Positions 1 to 9,611 of a stretch of DNA of 9,611 nt are shown here, in pieces (position 1 is the first letter of the stretch; each line of letters begins with the position of its first letter). Origin of the DNA: a virus (lineage: Duplodnaviria; Heunggongvirae; Uroviricota; Caudoviricetes); the IMG/VR virus record IMGVR_UViG_2693429529_000026; one strand, 5' to 3'. Under the pieces are notes generated by a model. That model saw nothing but the letters and a program-made list of their open reading frames with translations, searched no databases and was not told the origin of the DNA. The translations under genes were made by a program, and so were the position numbers.

Positions 1-483
1 ATGACGAAGAAAAAAGCACATAAACCTGGTTCAGCGACCATCGCGCTTAACAAGCGCGCCCGTCACGAATACTTTATCGAAGAAGAGTTCGAAGCGGGAC
101 TTGCCCTGCAAGGCTGGGAGGTTAAATCCCTGCGCGCAGGAAAAGCCAATATCAGCGACAGCTACGTCCTTCTGCGTGACGGAGAGGCATTTCTGTTTGG
201 CGCTAACATCACGCCAATGGCCGTGGCCTCCACGCATGTGGTGTGCGATCCTACCCGTACCCGCAAGTTACTTCTCAACCAGCGCGAACTGGACTCATTG
301 TACGGTCGCGTCAATCGAGAAGGCTATACCGTAGTGGCGCTCTCCCTGTACTGGAAAAATGCCTGGTGCAAAGTGAAAATCGGCGTCGCCAAAGGTAAAA
401 AACAGCACGATAAACGTTCAGATATCAAAGAACGCGAATGGCAGGTGGATAAAGCACGTATCATGAAAAACGCCCACCGTTAA
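1..483 (+). CDS. smpB: SsrA-binding protein SmpB (160 aa)
   Basis: Full-length ORF whose translation I recognise as enterobacterial SmpB; the tmRNA gene follows immediately, which is the conserved smpB-ssrA arrangement. Confidence 0.95.
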
Positions 484-1060: not shown

Positions 1061-1190
1061 ATCATGATTGGACGGTGTAAGGACAACACCAACAAAAACA
1101 GGAAGTTAGCAGTCTCAGCAGGACACCGACCAGACGGTGAGGAGACAAAAAAGGATACGCAAAGGAGCCGCGGCTCTCAAGTGTGAAAGA

Positions 1191-1216
1191 AGCCCGCAAA
1201 TTGCGGGCTTTTTTAT
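1191..1216 (+). terminator. Intrinsic terminator downstream of ssrA
   Basis: Perfect 7 bp GC-rich stem AGCCCGC / GCGGGCT with 5 nt loop, followed by TTTTTT. Confidence 0.6.
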
Positions 1217-1269
1217 TGATCAGTCAACAATAAACAGTAACCGAATGAGAATTTAATAAGGATATTCAT

Positions 1270-2301
1270 ATGGAAGCTACTGTGGATTCGATTGATTTTC
1301 TGATCCGTAGTGAAGATGATTTTCTAAACTTTCTGGAAGAAATGAAAGCCCGAGAGGGGCTTGATTCTAAAGAGTTTATTTTCCCTAACGTAAAGTTTGC
1401 AGGCTGGCCATCCTTAGACATAAATGTAAAAGGAGAGCGGTATCATTCATCAATTACATCAGCAATGTTGTTTGGTATGTCAATGCTCAACGAGGAGATA
1501 CAGCGGGCGTTTGCAACCATACGATACGGATCGCAGAATCTTCAACGCTTGACTAATGAAGACAAGCAACGACTTGATATAAATTTTAAAATTAGCGAAG
1601 GTTCTAGTGATGCGGAAGGCACCACTGACAAGATCATCAACGCAGTAACTGATTTTTTGCGAGATACTATGTCTGGACTGAACGGCTGGCAGAAAATGCT
1701 TGTTATAATCACAATGGTTGGCGCGGCCAGCACATGTGGTTATCACTACATTTCAGAAAATGCCGTAACAGAAAGACATGCAACTGATCGGCAGGTTGAA
1801 ATTGCAAAAACCACATCCGATGGCATAAACAAAGCCATAGAAGCAACATTAGATTATAAAATCTATGGGAAATCAGCGATTAGCGATAAAGTTACTAGTC
1901 ACGGACAAGCAGGTAAAAGTGCTTTAGTGAAGCAATTAGCTGCTGATCCTACTGTCGAAACCGTGACTTTAGGAAATGAGAAACTAACACGACAAGACCT
2001 AAATACCTACAACAGCCGACAATCTGTAGATAGAGAACGTAAAGAACGAACTGATATATTTTCCATCAAAGGTGTAACCAGAACAGGGCCAACAAATCAG
2101 GATATTAATATTAACGTTGTTAGGGTCTCTAATGACGAATGCTTCACAATCAAAGCTTCAGCTGATGTTATCACCCAAGATGAGTTGACAGCTATTGTTG
2201 ACGCTTTGTCAAACAACTCTCATATTAAAATCAGTTACTTAGAGGTAATTGAAAAGGGTGCTGTTTCTATAGGTCAGTTCAACACTATTGTTTCAGAATA
2301 A
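1270..2301 (+). CDS. Hypothetical protein, 343 aa, one central hydrophobic segment; no family recognised
   Basis: Long ORF with AAGGA Shine-Dalgarno 7 nt upstream of ATG; AT-rich codon usage unlike smpB; hydrophobic stretch WQKMLVIITMVGAASTCGYHYI. Confidence 0.75.
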   Translation: MEATVDSIDFLIRSEDDFLNFLEEMKAREGLDSKEFIFPNVKFAGWPSLDINVKGERYHSSITSAMLFGMSMLNEEIQRAFATIRYGSQNLQRLTNEDKQRLDINFKISEGSSDAEGTTDKIINAVTDFLRDTMSGLNGWQKMLVIITMVGAASTCGYHYISENAVTERHATDRQVEIAKTTSDGINKAIEATLDYKIYGKSAISDKVTSHGQAGKSALVKQLAADPTVETVTLGNEKLTRQDLNTYNSRQSVDRERKERTDIFSIKGVTRTGPTNQDININVVRVSNDECFTIKASADVITQDELTAIVDALSNNSHIKISYLEVIEKGAVSIGQFNTIVSE

Positions 2302-2352
2302 TCACTTAACCCCATTTATGTCGGTTGAGGTTATAAGTCACGGAGACCAGAT

Positions 2353-2697
2353 ATGTCCTTAAAGTATGCACATGAAAAATTTCATACTGCAGTACTTACT
2401 CTTGCGGGCCATGGAAGTATTCAAGAACGCTTGATTAATTCGTATGTTTTTAGCCTTGGGCATCTTAAAACAGCCGATGATATTCCAAATGCCTTACAAA
2501 GCAGGTTCGATGAATTATGTAAGGAACTGACTAAGTTTGATGCCACTGGCGATGAGGGGCGAGTTCAAGCAACAGTATCAAAACTTAACGATTTCGAGAT
2601 CAATAAACTGATCGAAGATATTGTCAGTCTTAACGATGATATTTGCATGAAATTGGCTCTGACGGATGAGACTTACCAAGACATACACCAAAGTTAA
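2353..2697 (+). CDS. Hypothetical small acidic protein, 114 aa; no family recognised
   Basis: ORF 51 bp downstream of the previous gene, GGAGA Shine-Dalgarno; same AT-rich composition; followed by a hairpin. Confidence 0.7.
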   Translation: MSLKYAHEKFHTAVLTLAGHGSIQERLINSYVFSLGHLKTADDIPNALQSRFDELCKELTKFDATGDEGRVQATVSKLNDFEINKLIEDIVSLNDDICMKLALTDETYQDIHQS

Positions 2698-2724: not shown

Positions 2725-2752
2725 AACCAGCCAGTTTTTGGCTGGTTTATTG
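2725..2752 (+). terminator. Hairpin between convergent genes, likely terminator of the two-gene cassette
   Basis: AACCAGCC(A) / (T)GGCTGGTT stem with T-rich loop, followed by a T-rich but interrupted tail. Confidence 0.4.
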
Positions 2753-2781: not shown

Positions 2782-2994
2782 CTATTTATGATGTAATCCG
2801 GACATCAGTTCATGGACAAGATTATCTCTTTCATTGTGTTGCAACCGTAAATGCATAGCAAAAAGGTGAGCACTATCCTCATTCCTCTTCAAGCCATGCT
2901 GTTCAAGATACCCGAAAAAACGGCTTCTCTTATCCGCTATTTCCTGAGTCTGACGTGCAACATTTACCAAATTTTCTAGCGTTTTTCTTGGCAT
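2782..2994 (-). CDS. Hypothetical protein, 70 aa
   Basis: ORF with strong AGGAGG Shine-Dalgarno about 8 nt upstream of ATG; lies immediately downstream of pin on the same strand. Confidence 0.55.
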   Translation of the reverse strand: MPRKTLENLVNVARQTQEIADKRSRFFGYLEQHGLKRNEDSAHLFAMHLRLQHNERDNLVHELMSGLHHK

Positions 2995-3192
2995 ACTATT
3001 TCCTCCTGAAATTGTTGTAATTCACTAGGATATTCATTTTAATTTGTATCATTTAGTACCAAAACCGCTATCAATTAACAAAGCCATCGTTGTGGTTTAC
3101 CTTGCAGCCGTTTTTTGTCATTGACTCTATGTGAAAATAATGAATCATCATGAGATTGGCTCACACGTTCTTGAATTCGACGAGCTGTGTCT

Positions 3193-3747
3193 TTATTTAT
3201 CTCCTGCCGGAAACCTCTGATACAAAGTCGATACGCCAACATCATAGATAATCGCAACTTTCTGGCGCGGAACTCCTGATGCAATTAATCGTCCGGCTTG
3301 TGCCCATTGTTCTGGTGTAAGTTTGGGACGACGTCCACCAATTCGTCCCTGTGCGCGAGCAGCTTCCAGTCCAGCTTTTGTTCGTTCAACAATCAGTTCT
3401 CGTTCCATTTCAGCCAGGGCCCCCATCACATGAAAGAAAAAGCGCCCCATTGGGGTACTGGTATCAATTGAATCCGTCAGACTACGAAAGTTGATGCCTC
3501 GTTCGCGCAACTCCTCCACCAGCACGACAAGATGCCGCATACTGCGCCCCAGTCGGTCCAGTTTCCAGACCACCAGCGTATCGCCTGCCGATAATGTCCT
3601 GAGCAGTTTTTTCAGTCCCGGCCTTTCGGACTTTGTACCGCTTATCTTGTCTTCAAAAATCAGCTCGCATCCTGCACAGTTCAGCGCATTACGTTGTAGA
3701 TCTGTGTTCTGGTCATTTGTTGACACACGTACATAGCCAATAAGCNN
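3193..3747 (-). CDS. pin: Serine recombinase, DNA invertase Pin/Gin/Hin family (about 184 aa); start codon partly masked by the N-run
   Basis: N-terminus (M)LIGYVRVSTNDQNTDLQRNAL carries the catalytic serine motif of resolvase/invertases; C-terminal helix-turn-helix region; length and sequence resemble e14 PinE. The ORF track starts at the internal GTG at 3726; the ATG inferred from the other two copies falls at 3745-3747. Confidence 0.9.
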   Translation of the reverse strand, partial: XLIGYVRVSTNDQNTDLQRNALNCAGCELIFEDKISGTKSERPGLKKLLRTLSAGDTLVVWKLDRLGRSMRHLVVLVEELRERGINFRSLTDSIDTSTPMGRFFFHVMGALAEMERELIVERTKAGLEAARAQGRIGGRRPKLTPEQWAQAGRLIASGVPRQKVAIIYDVGVSTLYQRFPAGDK

Positions 3748-3756
3748 NNNNNNNNN
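3746..3756. other. Run of 11 N (assembly gap or masked junction) between pin start and the IS end
   Basis: Literal n characters in the sequence. Confidence 1.
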
Positions 3757-3765
3757 TTGTAGTGG

Positions 3766-5575
<1,810 letters not shown>

Positions 5576-5578
5576 TCC

Positions 5579-6340
5579 ATGCATCGTATAGACACGAAAA
5601 CCGCGCAGAAGGATAAGTTCGGCGCGGGTAAGAACGGTTTTACCCGTGGTAACCCCCAGACCGGCACACCTGCCACCGATCTGGATGATGACTACTTTGA
5701 CATGTTGCAGGAAGAACTCTGCAGCGTGGTGGAGGCATCCGGTGCCAGCCTGGAGAAGGGGCGGCATGACCAGCTGCTTACCGCGCTTCGTGCGCTGCTG
5801 TTAAGCCGCAAGAATCCGTTTGGCGATATCAAATCTGATGGCACGGTGAAAACGGCTCTCGAAAACCTTGGTTTGGGAGAAGGTTCGGCATTACCCGTTG
5901 GTGTGCCTGTTCCGTGGCCTTCCGCCACTCCGCCAACGGGGTGGCTAAAATGTAACGGAGCAGTATTTTCTTCTGAAAAGTACCCAAATCTGGCAAAGGC
6001 TTACCCAACATTAAAATTACCAGATTTACGCGGTGAATTTATTCGTGGCTGGGATGATGGGCGCGGGATTGACTCTGGTCGTAACTTATTATCTGCACAG
6101 AATGATGCAATTCAGAATATTGTTGGTTCTTTTGGGCGTACCCAGCTTTTTAGAGACGTACTTAGTTCAGGGCCATTTAGTCAACATGGGCAAGTATTAT
6201 CTACAGGTCTAAAGGAAGCCGCAATTATTGAGGGTTATGGCGCTTATAACTGGACATTCGACGCATCTCGCTCAGTTCGCACAGCATCTGAAACCCGCTC
6301 CCGTAACATCGCCTTTAATTATATTGTGAGGGCTGCATGA
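5579..6340 (+). CDS. stf: Side tail fibre protein (constant N-terminal region fused to variable C-terminal cassette 1), 253 aa
   Basis: N-terminus [29 protein letters not shown]...[11 protein letters not shown] is the conserved phage Stf head; GGAG Shine-Dalgarno; the crossover site lies inside the gene at the constant/variable boundary. Confidence 0.8.
5856..5881. other. Invertase crossover site (hix/gix-like), left junction: CTCTCGAAAACC-TT-GGTTTGGGAGAA
   Basis: Resembles hix/gix as I recall them (TTCTTGAAAACC-AA-GGTTTTTGATAA); sits exactly where the duplicated cassette sequence begins (5868). Confidence 0.6.
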
Positions 6341-6891
6341 TAAGTAAAGCTGTATTAAATAATGAACTCATCGCCACAAAGGCCGGAGACATTACCGTTT
6401 ATAATTATGATGGTGAAACACGGGAATATATTTCCACATCAACTGAATATCTTGCTGTGGGTGTTGGTATCCCGGCATGTTCCTGTTTAGATGCTCCTGG
6501 CTCATATAAAGCTGGTTATGCAATTTGCCGTTCTGCAGATTTTAACTCATGGGAATATGTGCCAGACCATCGCGGTGAAATCGTCTATAGCACCGAAACA
6601 GGAGAATCAAAAGAAATCACACTTCCGGGTGATTACCCTGAAAATACAACCACTATCGCCCCGTTAACGTCATACGATAAATGGGATGGTGAGAAATGGG
6701 TGACCGATACTGAGGCACAGCATAACGCCGCAGTAGACGCGGCAGAAGTACGGCGCCAGTCACTGATTGATGCTGCTATGGCTTCCATTAGTCTGATTCA
6801 GCTGAAATTGCAGGCCGGGCGGAAGCTGACGCAGGCAGAAACAACCCGGCTTAACGCTGTGCTGGATTACATTGACGCGGTGACTGCAACA
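5868..6891 (+). repeat. Direct repeat, copy A of about 1024 bp (cassette 1 plus tfa); partner at 7275-8298
   Basis: ORF translations identical between copies; constant offset of 1407 bp from ORF coordinates. Confidence 0.85.
6337..6891 (+). CDS. tfa: Tail fibre assembly protein Tfa, copy A, 3' end replaced at the N junction (chimeric ORF continues to 7197)
   Basis: Identical to the full-length copy 7744-8349 for the first 185 codons, then a single N and antisense pin sequence. Confidence 0.6.
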
Positions 6892-6892
6892 N
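6892..6892. other. Single N at a chimeric junction (tfa codon 185 joined to the interior of pin, antisense)
   Basis: Position deduced from ORF-track coordinates; sequence on either side matches different genes. Confidence 0.8.
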
Positions 6893-6893
6893 G

Positions 6894-7208
6894 AAAGAAA
6901 AAGCGCCCCATTGGGGTACTGGTATCAATTGAATCCGTCAGACTACGAAAGTTGATGCCTCGTTCGCGCAACTCCTCCACCAGCACGACAAGATGCCGCA
7001 TACTGCGCCCCAGTCGGTCCAGTTTCCAGACCACCAGCGTATCGCCTGCCGATAATGTCCTGAGCAGTTTTTTCAGTCCCGGCCTTTCGGACTTTGTACC
7101 GCTTATCTTGTCTTCAAAAATCAGCTCGCATCCTGCACAGTTCAGCGCATTACGTTGTAGATCTGTGTTCTGGTCATTTGTTGACACACGTACATAGCCA
7201 ATAAGCAT
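6894..7208 (-). pseudogene. pin: Partial pin invertase (codons 1-105 only), identical to the 5' part of pin at 3193-3747
   Basis: MLIGYVRVSTNDQ...MGRFFF then the junction; same nucleotide sequence as copy 1 at offset 3461. Confidence 0.8.
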
Positions 7209-7262
7209 GGTAGATCTCCCTGACAAAAGCAGGAATGATGCCATTTGCTCGTTATTTCTGCA

Positions 7263-7288
7263 TTTTCATAAACGTTGGTTTGGGAGAA
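7263..7288. other. Invertase crossover site, pin-proximal type: TTTTCATAAACG-TT-GGTTTGGGAGAA
   Basis: Same inner half-site as 5856-5881, different outer half-site. Confidence 0.55.
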
Positions 7289-7747
7289 GGTTCGGCATTA
7301 CCCGTTGGTGTGCCTGTTCCGTGGCCTTCCGCCACTCCGCCAACGGGGTGGCTAAAATGTAACGGAGCAGTATTTTCTTCTGAAAAGTACCCAAATCTGG
7401 CAAAGGCTTACCCAACATTAAAATTACCAGATTTACGCGGTGAATTTATTCGTGGCTGGGATGATGGGCGCGGGATTGACTCTGGTCGTAACTTATTATC
7501 TGCACAGAATGATGCAATTCAGAATATTGTTGGTTCTTTTGGGCGTACCCAGCTTTTTAGAGACGTACTTAGTTCAGGGCCATTTAGTCAACATGGGCAA
7601 GTATTATCTACAGGTCTAAAGGAAGCCGCAATTATTGAGGGTTATGGCGCTTATAACTGGACATTCGACGCATCTCGCTCAGTTCGCACAGCATCTGAAA
7701 CCCGCTCCCGTAACATCGCCTTTAATTATATTGTGAGGGCTGCATGA
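7277..7747 (+). CDS. Tail fibre variable C-terminal cassette 1, second copy (not fused to the constant region here)
   Basis: Identical to 5870-6340; the upstream in-frame ATG at 7235 lies in the pin-proximal spacer. Confidence 0.55.
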   Translation, partial: GLGEGSALPVGVPVPWPSATPPTGWLKCNGAVFSSEKYPNLAKAYPTLKLPDLRGEFIRGWDDGRGIDSGRNLLSAQNDAIQNIVGSFGRTQLFRDVLSSGPFSQHGQVLSTGLKEAAIIEGYGAYNWTFDASRSVRTASETRSRNIAFNYIVRAA

Positions 7748-8766: not shown

Positions 8767-9219
8767 TTACCGTCCAATGATTAACGCTGAGACGCTGGTA
8801 TCTGAAGGAAAGGCTGCATTCAGTGGTTTGTCGACTTTGAACACAATCGTATTATTCCCCCTGACAGCGGCAAAAGAACAAACCGCCGTCGCGTATGAAC
8901 CTGTAATATTACTGGATACACCACCATAAGCTGTTGTTGATACCAGAGGGATAACGCCCAGCACCTTATTAGGAAATACAAAGGGCAATGTGGCTGTGGC
9001 AATATAAGACTTATTAGAACCTGTAATGGCATAAGCATTATCAGTCATTCCATTCATCGCCACTGGACCGCTTATACTTACAGTAACCATCTGAATGATT
9101 AGCCCGTCAGGTTGACGAATCACAAAATTTCCATTGCCACCAGTAACCGTCCAGAAAGACATATCAGGGATTTGGTTTTCCCCGTTGCCCACATTTCGTT
9201 TTGCCGCTTCTCCCAAACC
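8767..9219 (-). CDS. Alternative tail fibre variable C-terminal cassette 2, expressed only after inversion fuses it to the constant region
   Basis: In frame across the crossover site (...GLGE|AAKRNVGNGENQIP...); different sequence from cassette 1; sits upstream of tfa' on the same strand. Confidence 0.7.
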   Translation of the reverse strand, partial: GLGEAAKRNVGNGENQIPDMSFWTVTGGNGNFVIRQPDGLIIQMVTVSISGPVAMNGMTDNAYAITGSNKSYIATATLPFVFPNKVLGVIPLVSTTAYGGVSSNITGSYATAVCSFAAVRGNNTIVFKVDKPLNAAFPSDTSVSALIIGR

Positions 9220-9233
9220 AACGTTTATGAAAA
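9208..9233. other. Invertase crossover site, right junction (reverse complement of the 7263-7288 site)
   Basis: Mirror image of the site at 7263-7288. Confidence 0.55.
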
Positions 9234-9287
9234 TGCAGAAATAACGAGCAAATGGCATCATTCCTGCTTTTGTCAGGGAGATCTACC

Positions 9288-9611
9288 ATGCTTATTGGCT
9301 ATGTACGTGTGTCAACAAATGACCAGAACACAGATCTACAACGTAATGCGCTGAACTGTGCAGGATGCGAGCTGATTTTTGAAGACAAGATAAGCGGTAC
9401 AAAGTCCGAAAGGCCGGGACTGAAAAAACTGCTCAGGACATTATCGGCAGGCGATACGCTGGTGGTCTGGAAACTGGACCGACTGGGGCGCAGTATGCGG
9501 CATCTTGTCGTGCTGGTGGAGGAGTTGCGCGAACGAGGCATCAACTTTCGTAGTCTGACGGATTCAATTGATACCAGTACCCCAATGGGGCGCTTTTTCT
9601 TTCATGTGATG
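9288..9611 (+). CDS. pin: Pin-family DNA invertase, 5' portion (108 codons), runs off the window end
   Basis: ATG CTT ATT GGC TAT GTA CGT GTG TCA... = MLIGYVRVSTNDQ...; identical to the other pin copies. Confidence 0.9.
   Translation, partial: MLIGYVRVSTNDQNTDLQRNALNCAGCELIFEDKISGTKSERPGLKKLLRTLSAGDTLVVWKLDRLGRSMRHLVVLVEELRERGINFRSLTDSIDTSTPMGRFFFHVM

Follow-up and report, generated by a model that had tools for sequence, protein, structure and literature searches.

ORF1, a mobile prophage gene next to ssrA and a candidate single-gene membrane protein for superinfection exclusion or defence

In phage lambda, rexAB is transcribed together with cI from PRM in the lysogen. The inner-membrane protein gp15 of HK97 brings about superinfection exclusion as the product of a single gene, gene 15, which lies in the tail module by the tape-measure gene; BstA is encoded next to the repressor. 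Acting alone, the prophage-encoded BstA aborts infection at cytoplasmic sites of phage DNA replication (PMC8585504). A single prophage gene also suffices in the case of P22 SieA, an inner-membrane protein of 162-164 amino acids (aa) with three predicted membrane helices, which blocks DNA delivery via ejection/tape-measure interference (PMC10883804). Here we ask how such systems compare with open reading frame (ORF) 1 of a 9,611-nucleotide (nt) stretch of tailed-phage DNA (IMG/VR virus record IMGVR_UViG_2693429529_000026), which we call the window throughout, and with the two genes next to it, ORF2 and ORF3, in the interval between ssrA and a pinE-type invertase gene.

We lean, by a small margin of belief, towards ORF1 being a stand-alone membrane protein that is expressed in the lysogen and serves superinfection exclusion or defence, with ORF2 as a separate gene. 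It is one of many predicted defence genes, and a credible, well-defined candidate for defence or exclusion whose architecture is unusual. An earlier reading of the window (the original prediction) had proposed that ORF1 and ORF2 together are defence or exclusion cargo, possibly a toxin/antitoxin-like pair. The part of this that concerns ORF1 has gained circumstantial support, from the slots that its relatives occupy and from the prediction of a classifier, while the two-gene or toxin/antitoxin cassette has not survived comparison.

The ORF1 family and the slots it occupies

ORF1 matches phrog_6191, a family of function unknown, over nearly its whole length (E = 6.8e-38; residues 7-340 against positions 5-331 of a 338-position profile). 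A word-index search with ORF1 returned 76 homologues, all from Enterobacterales and all annotated "hypothetical"; an exhaustive HMMER search with a 33-sequence profile returned 832 clusters (50% identity) at E <=1e-3, 478 of them at E <=1e-10, and the family also has members in Pseudoalteromonas, Pseudomonas putida and a Moraxella phage. Scanning a genome collection with a closer alignment gave 10 loci. Nearly all members are 310-360 aa long, and the family is almost confined to prophages. As the original prediction had it, neither ORF1 nor ORF2 can be placed in a named family: scans of Pfam, NCBIfam and PADLOC were empty for both. Nor did anything consistent emerge from Pfam or PADLOC for 106 diverse members of the ORF1 family, PADLOC-DB v2.0.0 giving scattered single weak matches only. 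Searches of PDB sequences with ORF1 profiles gave sub-threshold matches only, and those over the hydrophobic helix were single-pass membrane anchors. The depositor of phage PhiR12 had labelled its homologue GspM, of the type II secretion system; we reject this label, as neither the PhiR12 protein nor the window protein nor any of the 106 relatives matches the GspM/T2SSM family of Pfam at E <=1.

The family has a common layout, made up of an N-terminal domain, one hydrophobic helix, a helical stalk and a variable C-terminal OB-fold (oligonucleotide/oligosaccharide-binding fold) domain (Table 1). Across the 106 members the hydrophobic stretch has a median Kyte-Doolittle score of 1.73 and reaches at least 1.6 in 71%; none has a second such stretch, and the start is conserved (median residue 132, interquartile range 129-136). 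In the window copy the best 19-residue window, residues 143-161, scores 1.41. The N-terminal domain is the better conserved in 103 of 105 members, with a median identity to the window protein of 31%, versus 14% for the C-terminal domain. Because ORF1 has no signal peptide and carries a conserved N-terminal domain of ~135 aa ahead of its single helix, it would be expected to sit in the inner membrane with its N terminus in the cytoplasm and its C terminus in the periplasm. The AlphaFold2 (AF2) model of the protein has a mean predicted local distance difference test (pLDDT) score of 59.8 and is usable for the C-terminal domain only, which it depicts as a five-stranded closed beta-barrel superposable on known OB-folds. 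A search of BFVD with this model gave generic OB-fold or uncharacterised matches only. Comparison with a variant of the block at locus L004 gives a ratio of nonsynonymous to synonymous substitution rates (dN/dS) of 0.066 for the C-terminal part, that is, strong purifying selection.

OB-folds also occur in periplasmic metal chaperones and in the B subunits of toxins, and a membrane protein that exposes such a domain might do something other than exclude phages. ORF1 could be a lysogenic-conversion gene, altering envelope physiology, stress tolerance or the interaction with an animal host, with ORF2 and ORF3 as passengers of a similar sort. Lambda Bor and Lom are lysogenic-conversion products, and slots like those occupied by ORF1 carry such genes in other phages. 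Along with the predicted membrane location and the exposed C-terminal domain, the recovery of the block from human, animal and food isolates is consistent with a role of this kind. We consider it unlikely, if worth keeping in view. The exclusion or defence role that we prefer draws on the genomic contexts of the relatives and on the classifier, to which we now turn.

Relatives of ORF1 are single genes in about 17 distinct prophage or island contexts. One of these is the slot between cI and N, the position of rexAB in lambda, where relatives stand on the repressor strand in phi458 (25-nt gap after cI), PhiR12, E. coli MLI023K1 and Yersinia, as well as in three metagenomic contigs and a further contig with a phage-21-type N. 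These cI-slot relatives are 26-65% identical to ORF1; the window copy is at the invertase end instead. The icd/att-int slot holds relatives in Klebsiella, Serratia and Scandinavium, and the slot at the host gene/tail-fibre end holds them in Enterobacter and Serratia. Invertase-adjacent relatives lacking ORF2 and ORF3 are found in Mangrovibacter and Citrobacter, a Klebsiella tail module has a relative between a tail-chaperone-like gene and the tape-measure gene, and in Cronobacter one lies at a junction where different mobile elements insert. Another protein of 343 aa, encoded close to the Cronobacter homologue, has no relationship to ORF1. The Mangrovibacter and Cronobacter copies are 81-82% identical to ORF1. 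From a gene that hops as a unit among accessory slots of unrelated temperate phages, one of them repressor-linked, we infer the signature of a lysogen-expressed moron; it is the slots occupied by the relatives that suggest expression of ORF1 in the lysogen.

One can also envision that ORF1 serves the phage's own cycle, for instance by controlling induction, lysis timing, replication or DNA entry from a membrane anchor. A position next to cI would suit lysogeny maintenance too, and near-confinement to prophages fits a gene of this kind. Against it, related prophages whose pin genes are 91-94% identical differ in whether ORF1 is present or absent, and the family stands at no fewer than four non-homologous positions in different phage types, unlike a core function. 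ORF1 moreover persists in a phage-less remnant (L037), which keeps only pin, ORF3, ORF2 and ORF1, the rest of the phage having been lost, and it is pseudogenised in E. coli GCA_000352685.1 (L033:5694-6724), where it is split into pieces of 124 and 165 aa while ORF2, ORF3 and pin are intact. We therefore hold an own-cycle role to be improbable. The L033 locus is, in itself, a case of ORF1 lost without loss of ORF2.

The idea that ORF1 acts in defence has already been raised by a classifier. In Table S10 of DefensePredictor (DeWeirdt, Mahoney and Laub, Science 2026; PMC13092281), cluster_id WP_021530618.1 is listed as "Predicted novel defense gene" with predicted_defensive TRUE, and this accession is the ORF1 protein of E. 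coli 042. The mean log-odds of the cluster is 6.86, against a strict cut-off of 4, and its best-scoring member, WP_001272876.1, is the cI-adjacent homologue of E. coli MLI023K1. It is one of 1,041 predicted novel clusters from E. coli, and neither HHblits nor Foldseek matches it to a known defence protein (PMC13092281). The accessible parts of that study give no architecture, context or mechanism for it, and no ORF1 motif was found in the accessible text of its supplementary tables (PMC13092281). Literature searches by three RefSeq accessions, the PHROG number and phage names found no functional study of the family, and PADLOC models, which cover known systems up to 2023, match none of ORF1, ORF2 and ORF3.

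ORF2 and ORF3 beside ORF1

The original prediction amounted to one two-gene module, of defence or toxin/antitoxin-like type, in which ORF1 would be a membrane effector and ORF2 its sensor, inhibitor or self-immunity partner. The arrangement invites this: ORF1 and ORF2 run in the same direction with 51 nt and no terminator separating them, a terminator stands on either flank, and the two are always co-inherited in this prophage lineage. Some prophage defence genes do have self-immunity partners, as in Tab/anti-Tab (PMC10884400). Comparison with other lineages points the other way. ORF2 adjoins ORF1 only in blocks of the window type. A profile of ORF2 run against 33 loci with ORF1 homologues from other lineages, drawn from the same 17 or so contexts, found no adjacent ORF2 homologue, and the 81-82% identical ORF1 copies of Mangrovibacter and Cronobacter are without ORF2. 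Conversely, a profile of ORF1 found no ORF1 relative within 5 kb of the ORF2 relatives on plasmids of Deinococcus and Methylobacterium. Between the window and L004, synonymous divergence (dS) is 0.49 in ORF2 versus 0.25 in the ORF1 C terminus, which suggests separate histories.

Across the genomes compared, then, ORF2 is not a conserved partner of ORF1, and ORF1 does not need ORF2. The claim of a functional pair is contradicted by an ORF1 that stands alone in context after context, including those of the 81-82% identical copies noted above, and the pair was not found together outside the window-type block; the candidacy of ORF1 itself is unaffected. The analogy to Tab/anti-Tab was rejected, since ORF2 does not co-vary with ORF1. 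We give a joint module little credence, and recognizing this spares further work on a toxin/antitoxin model already at odds with the comparative data. The two genes are probably co-transcribed in this lineage only, given that the spacer between them is without significant structure (Table 1).

ORF2 is a real gene on the evidence of its substitution pattern. Against the L004 variant, which is 84% identical, the ORF2 frame has a dN/dS of 0.15, and the other two frames have values of 1.26 and 1.89. Its only relatives in a word-index search were at least 73% identical over the aligned part. Use of tblastn added full-length homologues, at 33-40% identity, on plasmids of Deinococcus sp. (L050:5001-5324) and Methylobacterium aquaticum (L051:5001-5315), which share with ORF2 an N-terminal motif, YAxEK...A...Q.RL, and a G(D/Q)EG motif. 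The Methylobacterium homologue is neighboured by ParA, an XRE/HTH_37 regulator and a serine recombinase, that of Deinococcus by DUF4917 and ParA. With homologues on plasmids of two other phyla, ORF2 therefore appears to belong to an old, thinly spread family of small proteins. PDB sequences gave no match to it, and its AF2 model, a low-confidence helical bundle (pLDDT 49.5), is too poor for a fold search.

Some other sequences touch on ORF2. A 102-114-aa protein near alaE in Cronobacter (L005-L008:15932-16282, minus strand) shows a marginal match to the ORF2 profile (E about 7e-4, the search space being small), which could reflect either a distant relative of ORF2 on the chromosome or noise. 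In protein P0081, from an NCBI E. coli genome, residues 1-79 of ORF2 are fused to a frame that crosses an invertase crossover-like site, ttctcccaaaccaacgtttatgaaaa. That site lies at 9209-9234 of the window, and the ORF2 DNA gtatcaaaacttaacgatttcgagat (2572-2597) agrees with it at 14 of 26 positions, the central AACG included. The match points to recombination by Pin, in a single isolate, at a pseudo-site within ORF2.

ORF3 is a third, putative cargo gene, absent from the original prediction, which lies between ORF2 and pin and is convergent to ORF2. It has no match in Pfam, NCBIfam, PADLOC, PHROGs or PDB sequences. Near-identical copies are the only ones found, always within pin-ORF3-ORF2-ORF1. 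A 76-aa convergent ORF beside the Methylobacterium ORF2 homologue, considered as a relative of ORF3, is unrelated.

The prophage slot and the layout of the window

The 34-nt end of ssrA is repeated in E. coli 042 (33/34 identical, L020:14516-14549) ~27.7 kb downstream, after the prophage integrase and two further genes. ORF1-3 are thus inside a prophage of roughly 27.7 kb, at its int-distal end, just past the invertase. The order past the block in E. coli 042 is invertase, tail-fibre genes, lysis genes, Q, replication genes, cro/cI-type regulators and integrase; other carriers of the block have a prophage with a Mu-type baseplate module. The pinE-type invertase gene is the last conserved gene of the tail-fibre module. 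DNA identical to it is annotated as pinE in RefSeq, and the same gene in related loci has the Resolvase and HTH_7 domains of Pfam.

The identical block is carried by 45 of 5426 complete E. coli genomes. The ssrA trailer (1061-1220) is common to 4169 of the 5426, at about 89-91% identity; the sequence to the right of the trailer is not. Invertase genes at least 99% identical to that of the window occur in 171 records, versus the ORF1-3 block in 45 genomes, and a collection index places the pin-ORF3-ORF2-ORF1 block in thousands of public assemblies (4933 index blocks). What fills the slot beyond pin differs from prophage to prophage: mcrA in e14 of K-12, a GIY-YIG protein in related prophages, another hypothetical protein in Ecol_542, and an ORF1 homologue alone in Mangrovibacter. 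The region thus combines a deviant composition, terminators of its own, presence/absence polymorphism and a variable slot, the marks of a moron; it is an accessory ("moron") slot at the tail-fibre/invertase end of a prophage in ssrA, and its contents are three independent small transcription units and not one module. The view of the region as horizontally acquired prophage cargo is borne out by its patchy presence and by its place within an element flanked by the repeated att core.

The opposite end of the same prophage holds a second cargo slot: in E. coli 042 the interval from integrase to second att (L020:10506-14549) encodes an ATPase of the AAA family (577 aa) and a DNA adenine methylase. 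Beyond that att lie tandem ssrA islands with a second integrase, a large serine recombinase, two ParB-like genes and a type I restriction-modification system.

Table 1. Features of the window discussed in the text
Feature	Position	Strand	Remarks
smpB	1-483		window start
ssrA (transfer-messenger RNA gene)	698-1060
attL core of prophage (last 34 nt of ssrA)	1028-1061	+
ssrA intrinsic terminator, hairpin and T run	1186-1214	+	fold -19.3 kcal/mol, z = -5.75
Shine-Dalgarno AAGGA of ORF1	1258-1262	+	7 nt ahead of ATG at 1270
ORF1	1270-2301	+	343 aa; PHROG 6191 member, predicted single-pass membrane protein
N-terminal domain, ORF1 residues 40-135	1387-1674	+	motifs GWPxLxINVKG, NLQRLT, ISEGSS; predicted cytoplasmic
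Hydrophobic helix, ORF1 residues 143-161	1696-1752	+	predicted membrane anchor
Variable C-terminal domain, ORF1 residues 229-343	1954-2298	+	predicted OB-fold beta-barrel
ORF1-ORF2 spacer	2302-2352	+	51 nt; fold z = -0.07
Shine-Dalgarno GGAGA of ORF2	2342-2346	+	6 nt ahead of ORF2 ATG
ORF2	2353-2697	+	114 aa, acidic, predicted all-helical
Bidirectional terminator hairpin, convergent ORF2/ORF3	2725-2747		-15.2 (+) / -16.2 (-) kcal/mol; z about -5
ORF3	2782-2994	-	70 aa basic ORFan; Shine-Dalgarno AGGAGGA at 3001-3007 (-)
pinE-type serine invertase	3193-3745	-	5' end cut by N run 3746-3756

At the level of layout the original prediction was accurate. The coordinates of ORF1 and ORF2, their common strand and the gap between them were exactly as claimed, as were both Shine-Dalgarno sequences. 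The two flanking hairpins do fold significantly (z = -5.0 for the second), and the one between ORF2 and ORF3 forms a good fold on either strand and can therefore serve both convergent units as a terminator. The AT-richness, which had been judged by eye, is now put in figures: GC content is 0.395 in ORF1, 0.386 in ORF2 and 0.399 in ORF3, versus 0.516 in smpB and 0.529 in ssrA, and at third codon positions it is 0.34 for both ORF1 and ORF2 versus 0.57 for smpB. ORF2 is acidic as described (19 D/E versus 11 K/R, isoelectric point 4.9), and the hydrophobic stretch of ORF1 is real, though marginal in this copy.

ORF1 and ORF2 are genuine genes, ORF1 because it has hundreds of full-length homologues. 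That they are non-functional leftovers of AT-rich foreign DNA is hardly believable: a missing family annotation and an undetected promoter would fit such remnants, but purifying selection on both genes (with off-frame controls above 1), full-length conservation across hundreds of clusters and a good ribosome-binding site on each ORF would not.

The right half of the window has features of its own. It contains an 11-N run (3746-3756) and a single N at 6892. The 5' part of pin is present in three copies (3424-3745, 6889-7289 and 9207-9611), two direct and one inverted and 100% identical, and tail-fibre segments are duplicated (5863-6162 = 7270-7569). This half looks like an assembly scaffold, not natural contiguous DNA, and the Pin-invertible segment seems to have been joined end to end in its alternative orientations. 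An IS3-family insertion sequence (IS) element has its transposase ORFs at 3766-4979, and its 5' end gives a 150-bit match to Rfam isrC, an Hfq-binding small RNA (4825-4947, minus strand); the match probably reflects IS sequence underlying the Rfam family.

A proposed mode of action and the described systems

We imagine that ORF1 is made in the lysogen and would protect it against other phages. The variable stalk and OB-fold, if periplasmic, would be the specificity element and might engage the genome-delivery machinery of an incoming phage, either its tape-measure or ejection proteins or the inner-membrane receptor that these use. In the outcome that we favour, DNA entry would be blocked, giving superinfection exclusion of the kind seen with P22 SieA. 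In the main alternative outcome, the periplasmic event would be a trigger, signalled through the conserved cytoplasmic domain, and infection would be aborted. The conserved N-terminal domain would be an effector or signalling element.

Several points weigh against this scheme. The helix of the window copy is marginal, its score falling under the usual threshold, and membrane insertion and topology are predictions; the charges flanking the helix are ambiguous as to orientation (K+R 2.26 on the N side versus 2.69 on the C side). The N-terminal domain has a pLDDT below 50 over much of its length in the AF2 model, too low for a fold to be assigned or an effector activity to be named. It is from the slots of the relatives that expression in the lysogen is argued, and a promoter scan upstream of ORF1 in the window gave nothing convincing. 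Accessory slots also house genes that have nothing to do with defence. Of the transcription units assayed with DefensePredictor, 45% were validated, and in the accessible parts of that study the ORF1 cluster is neither among those assayed nor among the 42 validated systems (PMC13092281). Function and mechanism are inferred throughout.

A bolder version would make the ORF1 family a new class of one-protein, membrane-spanning anti-phage sensor-effectors, which would detect genome delivery in the periplasm before phage genes are expressed, exclusion or abortive infection then being carried out by the conserved cytoplasmic domain. The same version would have this class widespread (>800 clusters at 50% identity) among the temperate phages of Gammaproteobacteria, as a positional alternative to rexAB. 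We regard it as a long shot, in both its parts.

Should the more modest reading hold, with ORF1 as a single-gene exclusion or defence protein, a large family, unrelated in sequence to known systems, would be added to the immunity genes of prophages, and ORF1 would be one of a small number working at or across the inner membrane when the genome enters. The family lends itself readily to testing: a single gene of 1 kb is involved, E. coli has natural variants of it, and the variable C-terminal domain offers a clear hypothesis for specificity. Whatever its function, its mobility between rexAB, att-int, tail-fibre-end and tail-module slots makes it a useful marker of accessory slots in temperate phages.

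How, then, does ORF1 compare with the described systems? The likeness to RexA and RexB is one of position and kind: relatives of ORF1 stand exactly where rexAB does, after cI and before N, on the cI strand and with short gaps, and in both cases there is a membrane component, a predicted one for ORF1, and the genes are dispensable to the prophage. The sequences are not similar, as aligning the 106-sequence family profile to lambda RexA and RexB with hhalign gave probabilities of 0.4% and 0.2%. RexAB is moreover two proteins, a cytoplasmic RexA and a polytopic RexB, whereas ORF1 is a single gene with one helix and no conserved neighbour, and the window copy is outside the cI slot. SieA resembles ORF1 in being the product of a single prophage gene; by description, the level at which we compared the two, ORF1 differs in its greater length, its one predicted helix, its conserved 135-aa N-terminal domain and its OB-fold. 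With HK97 gene 15 the Klebsiella relative shares a place in a tail module, next to the tape-measure gene. McrA of e14 and the GIY-YIG protein share with ORF1 and ORF2 the position just past pinE, at the prophage end and convergent with pin, but this likeness is positional only, since they are soluble, nuclease-type proteins unrelated to either. BstA, which acts in the cytoplasm, differs in that ORF1 is predicted to be membrane-anchored. The ORF1 family is thus novel in sequence within a known kind, that of the single-gene exclusion or defence accessory genes of prophages, and has already been flagged by computation.

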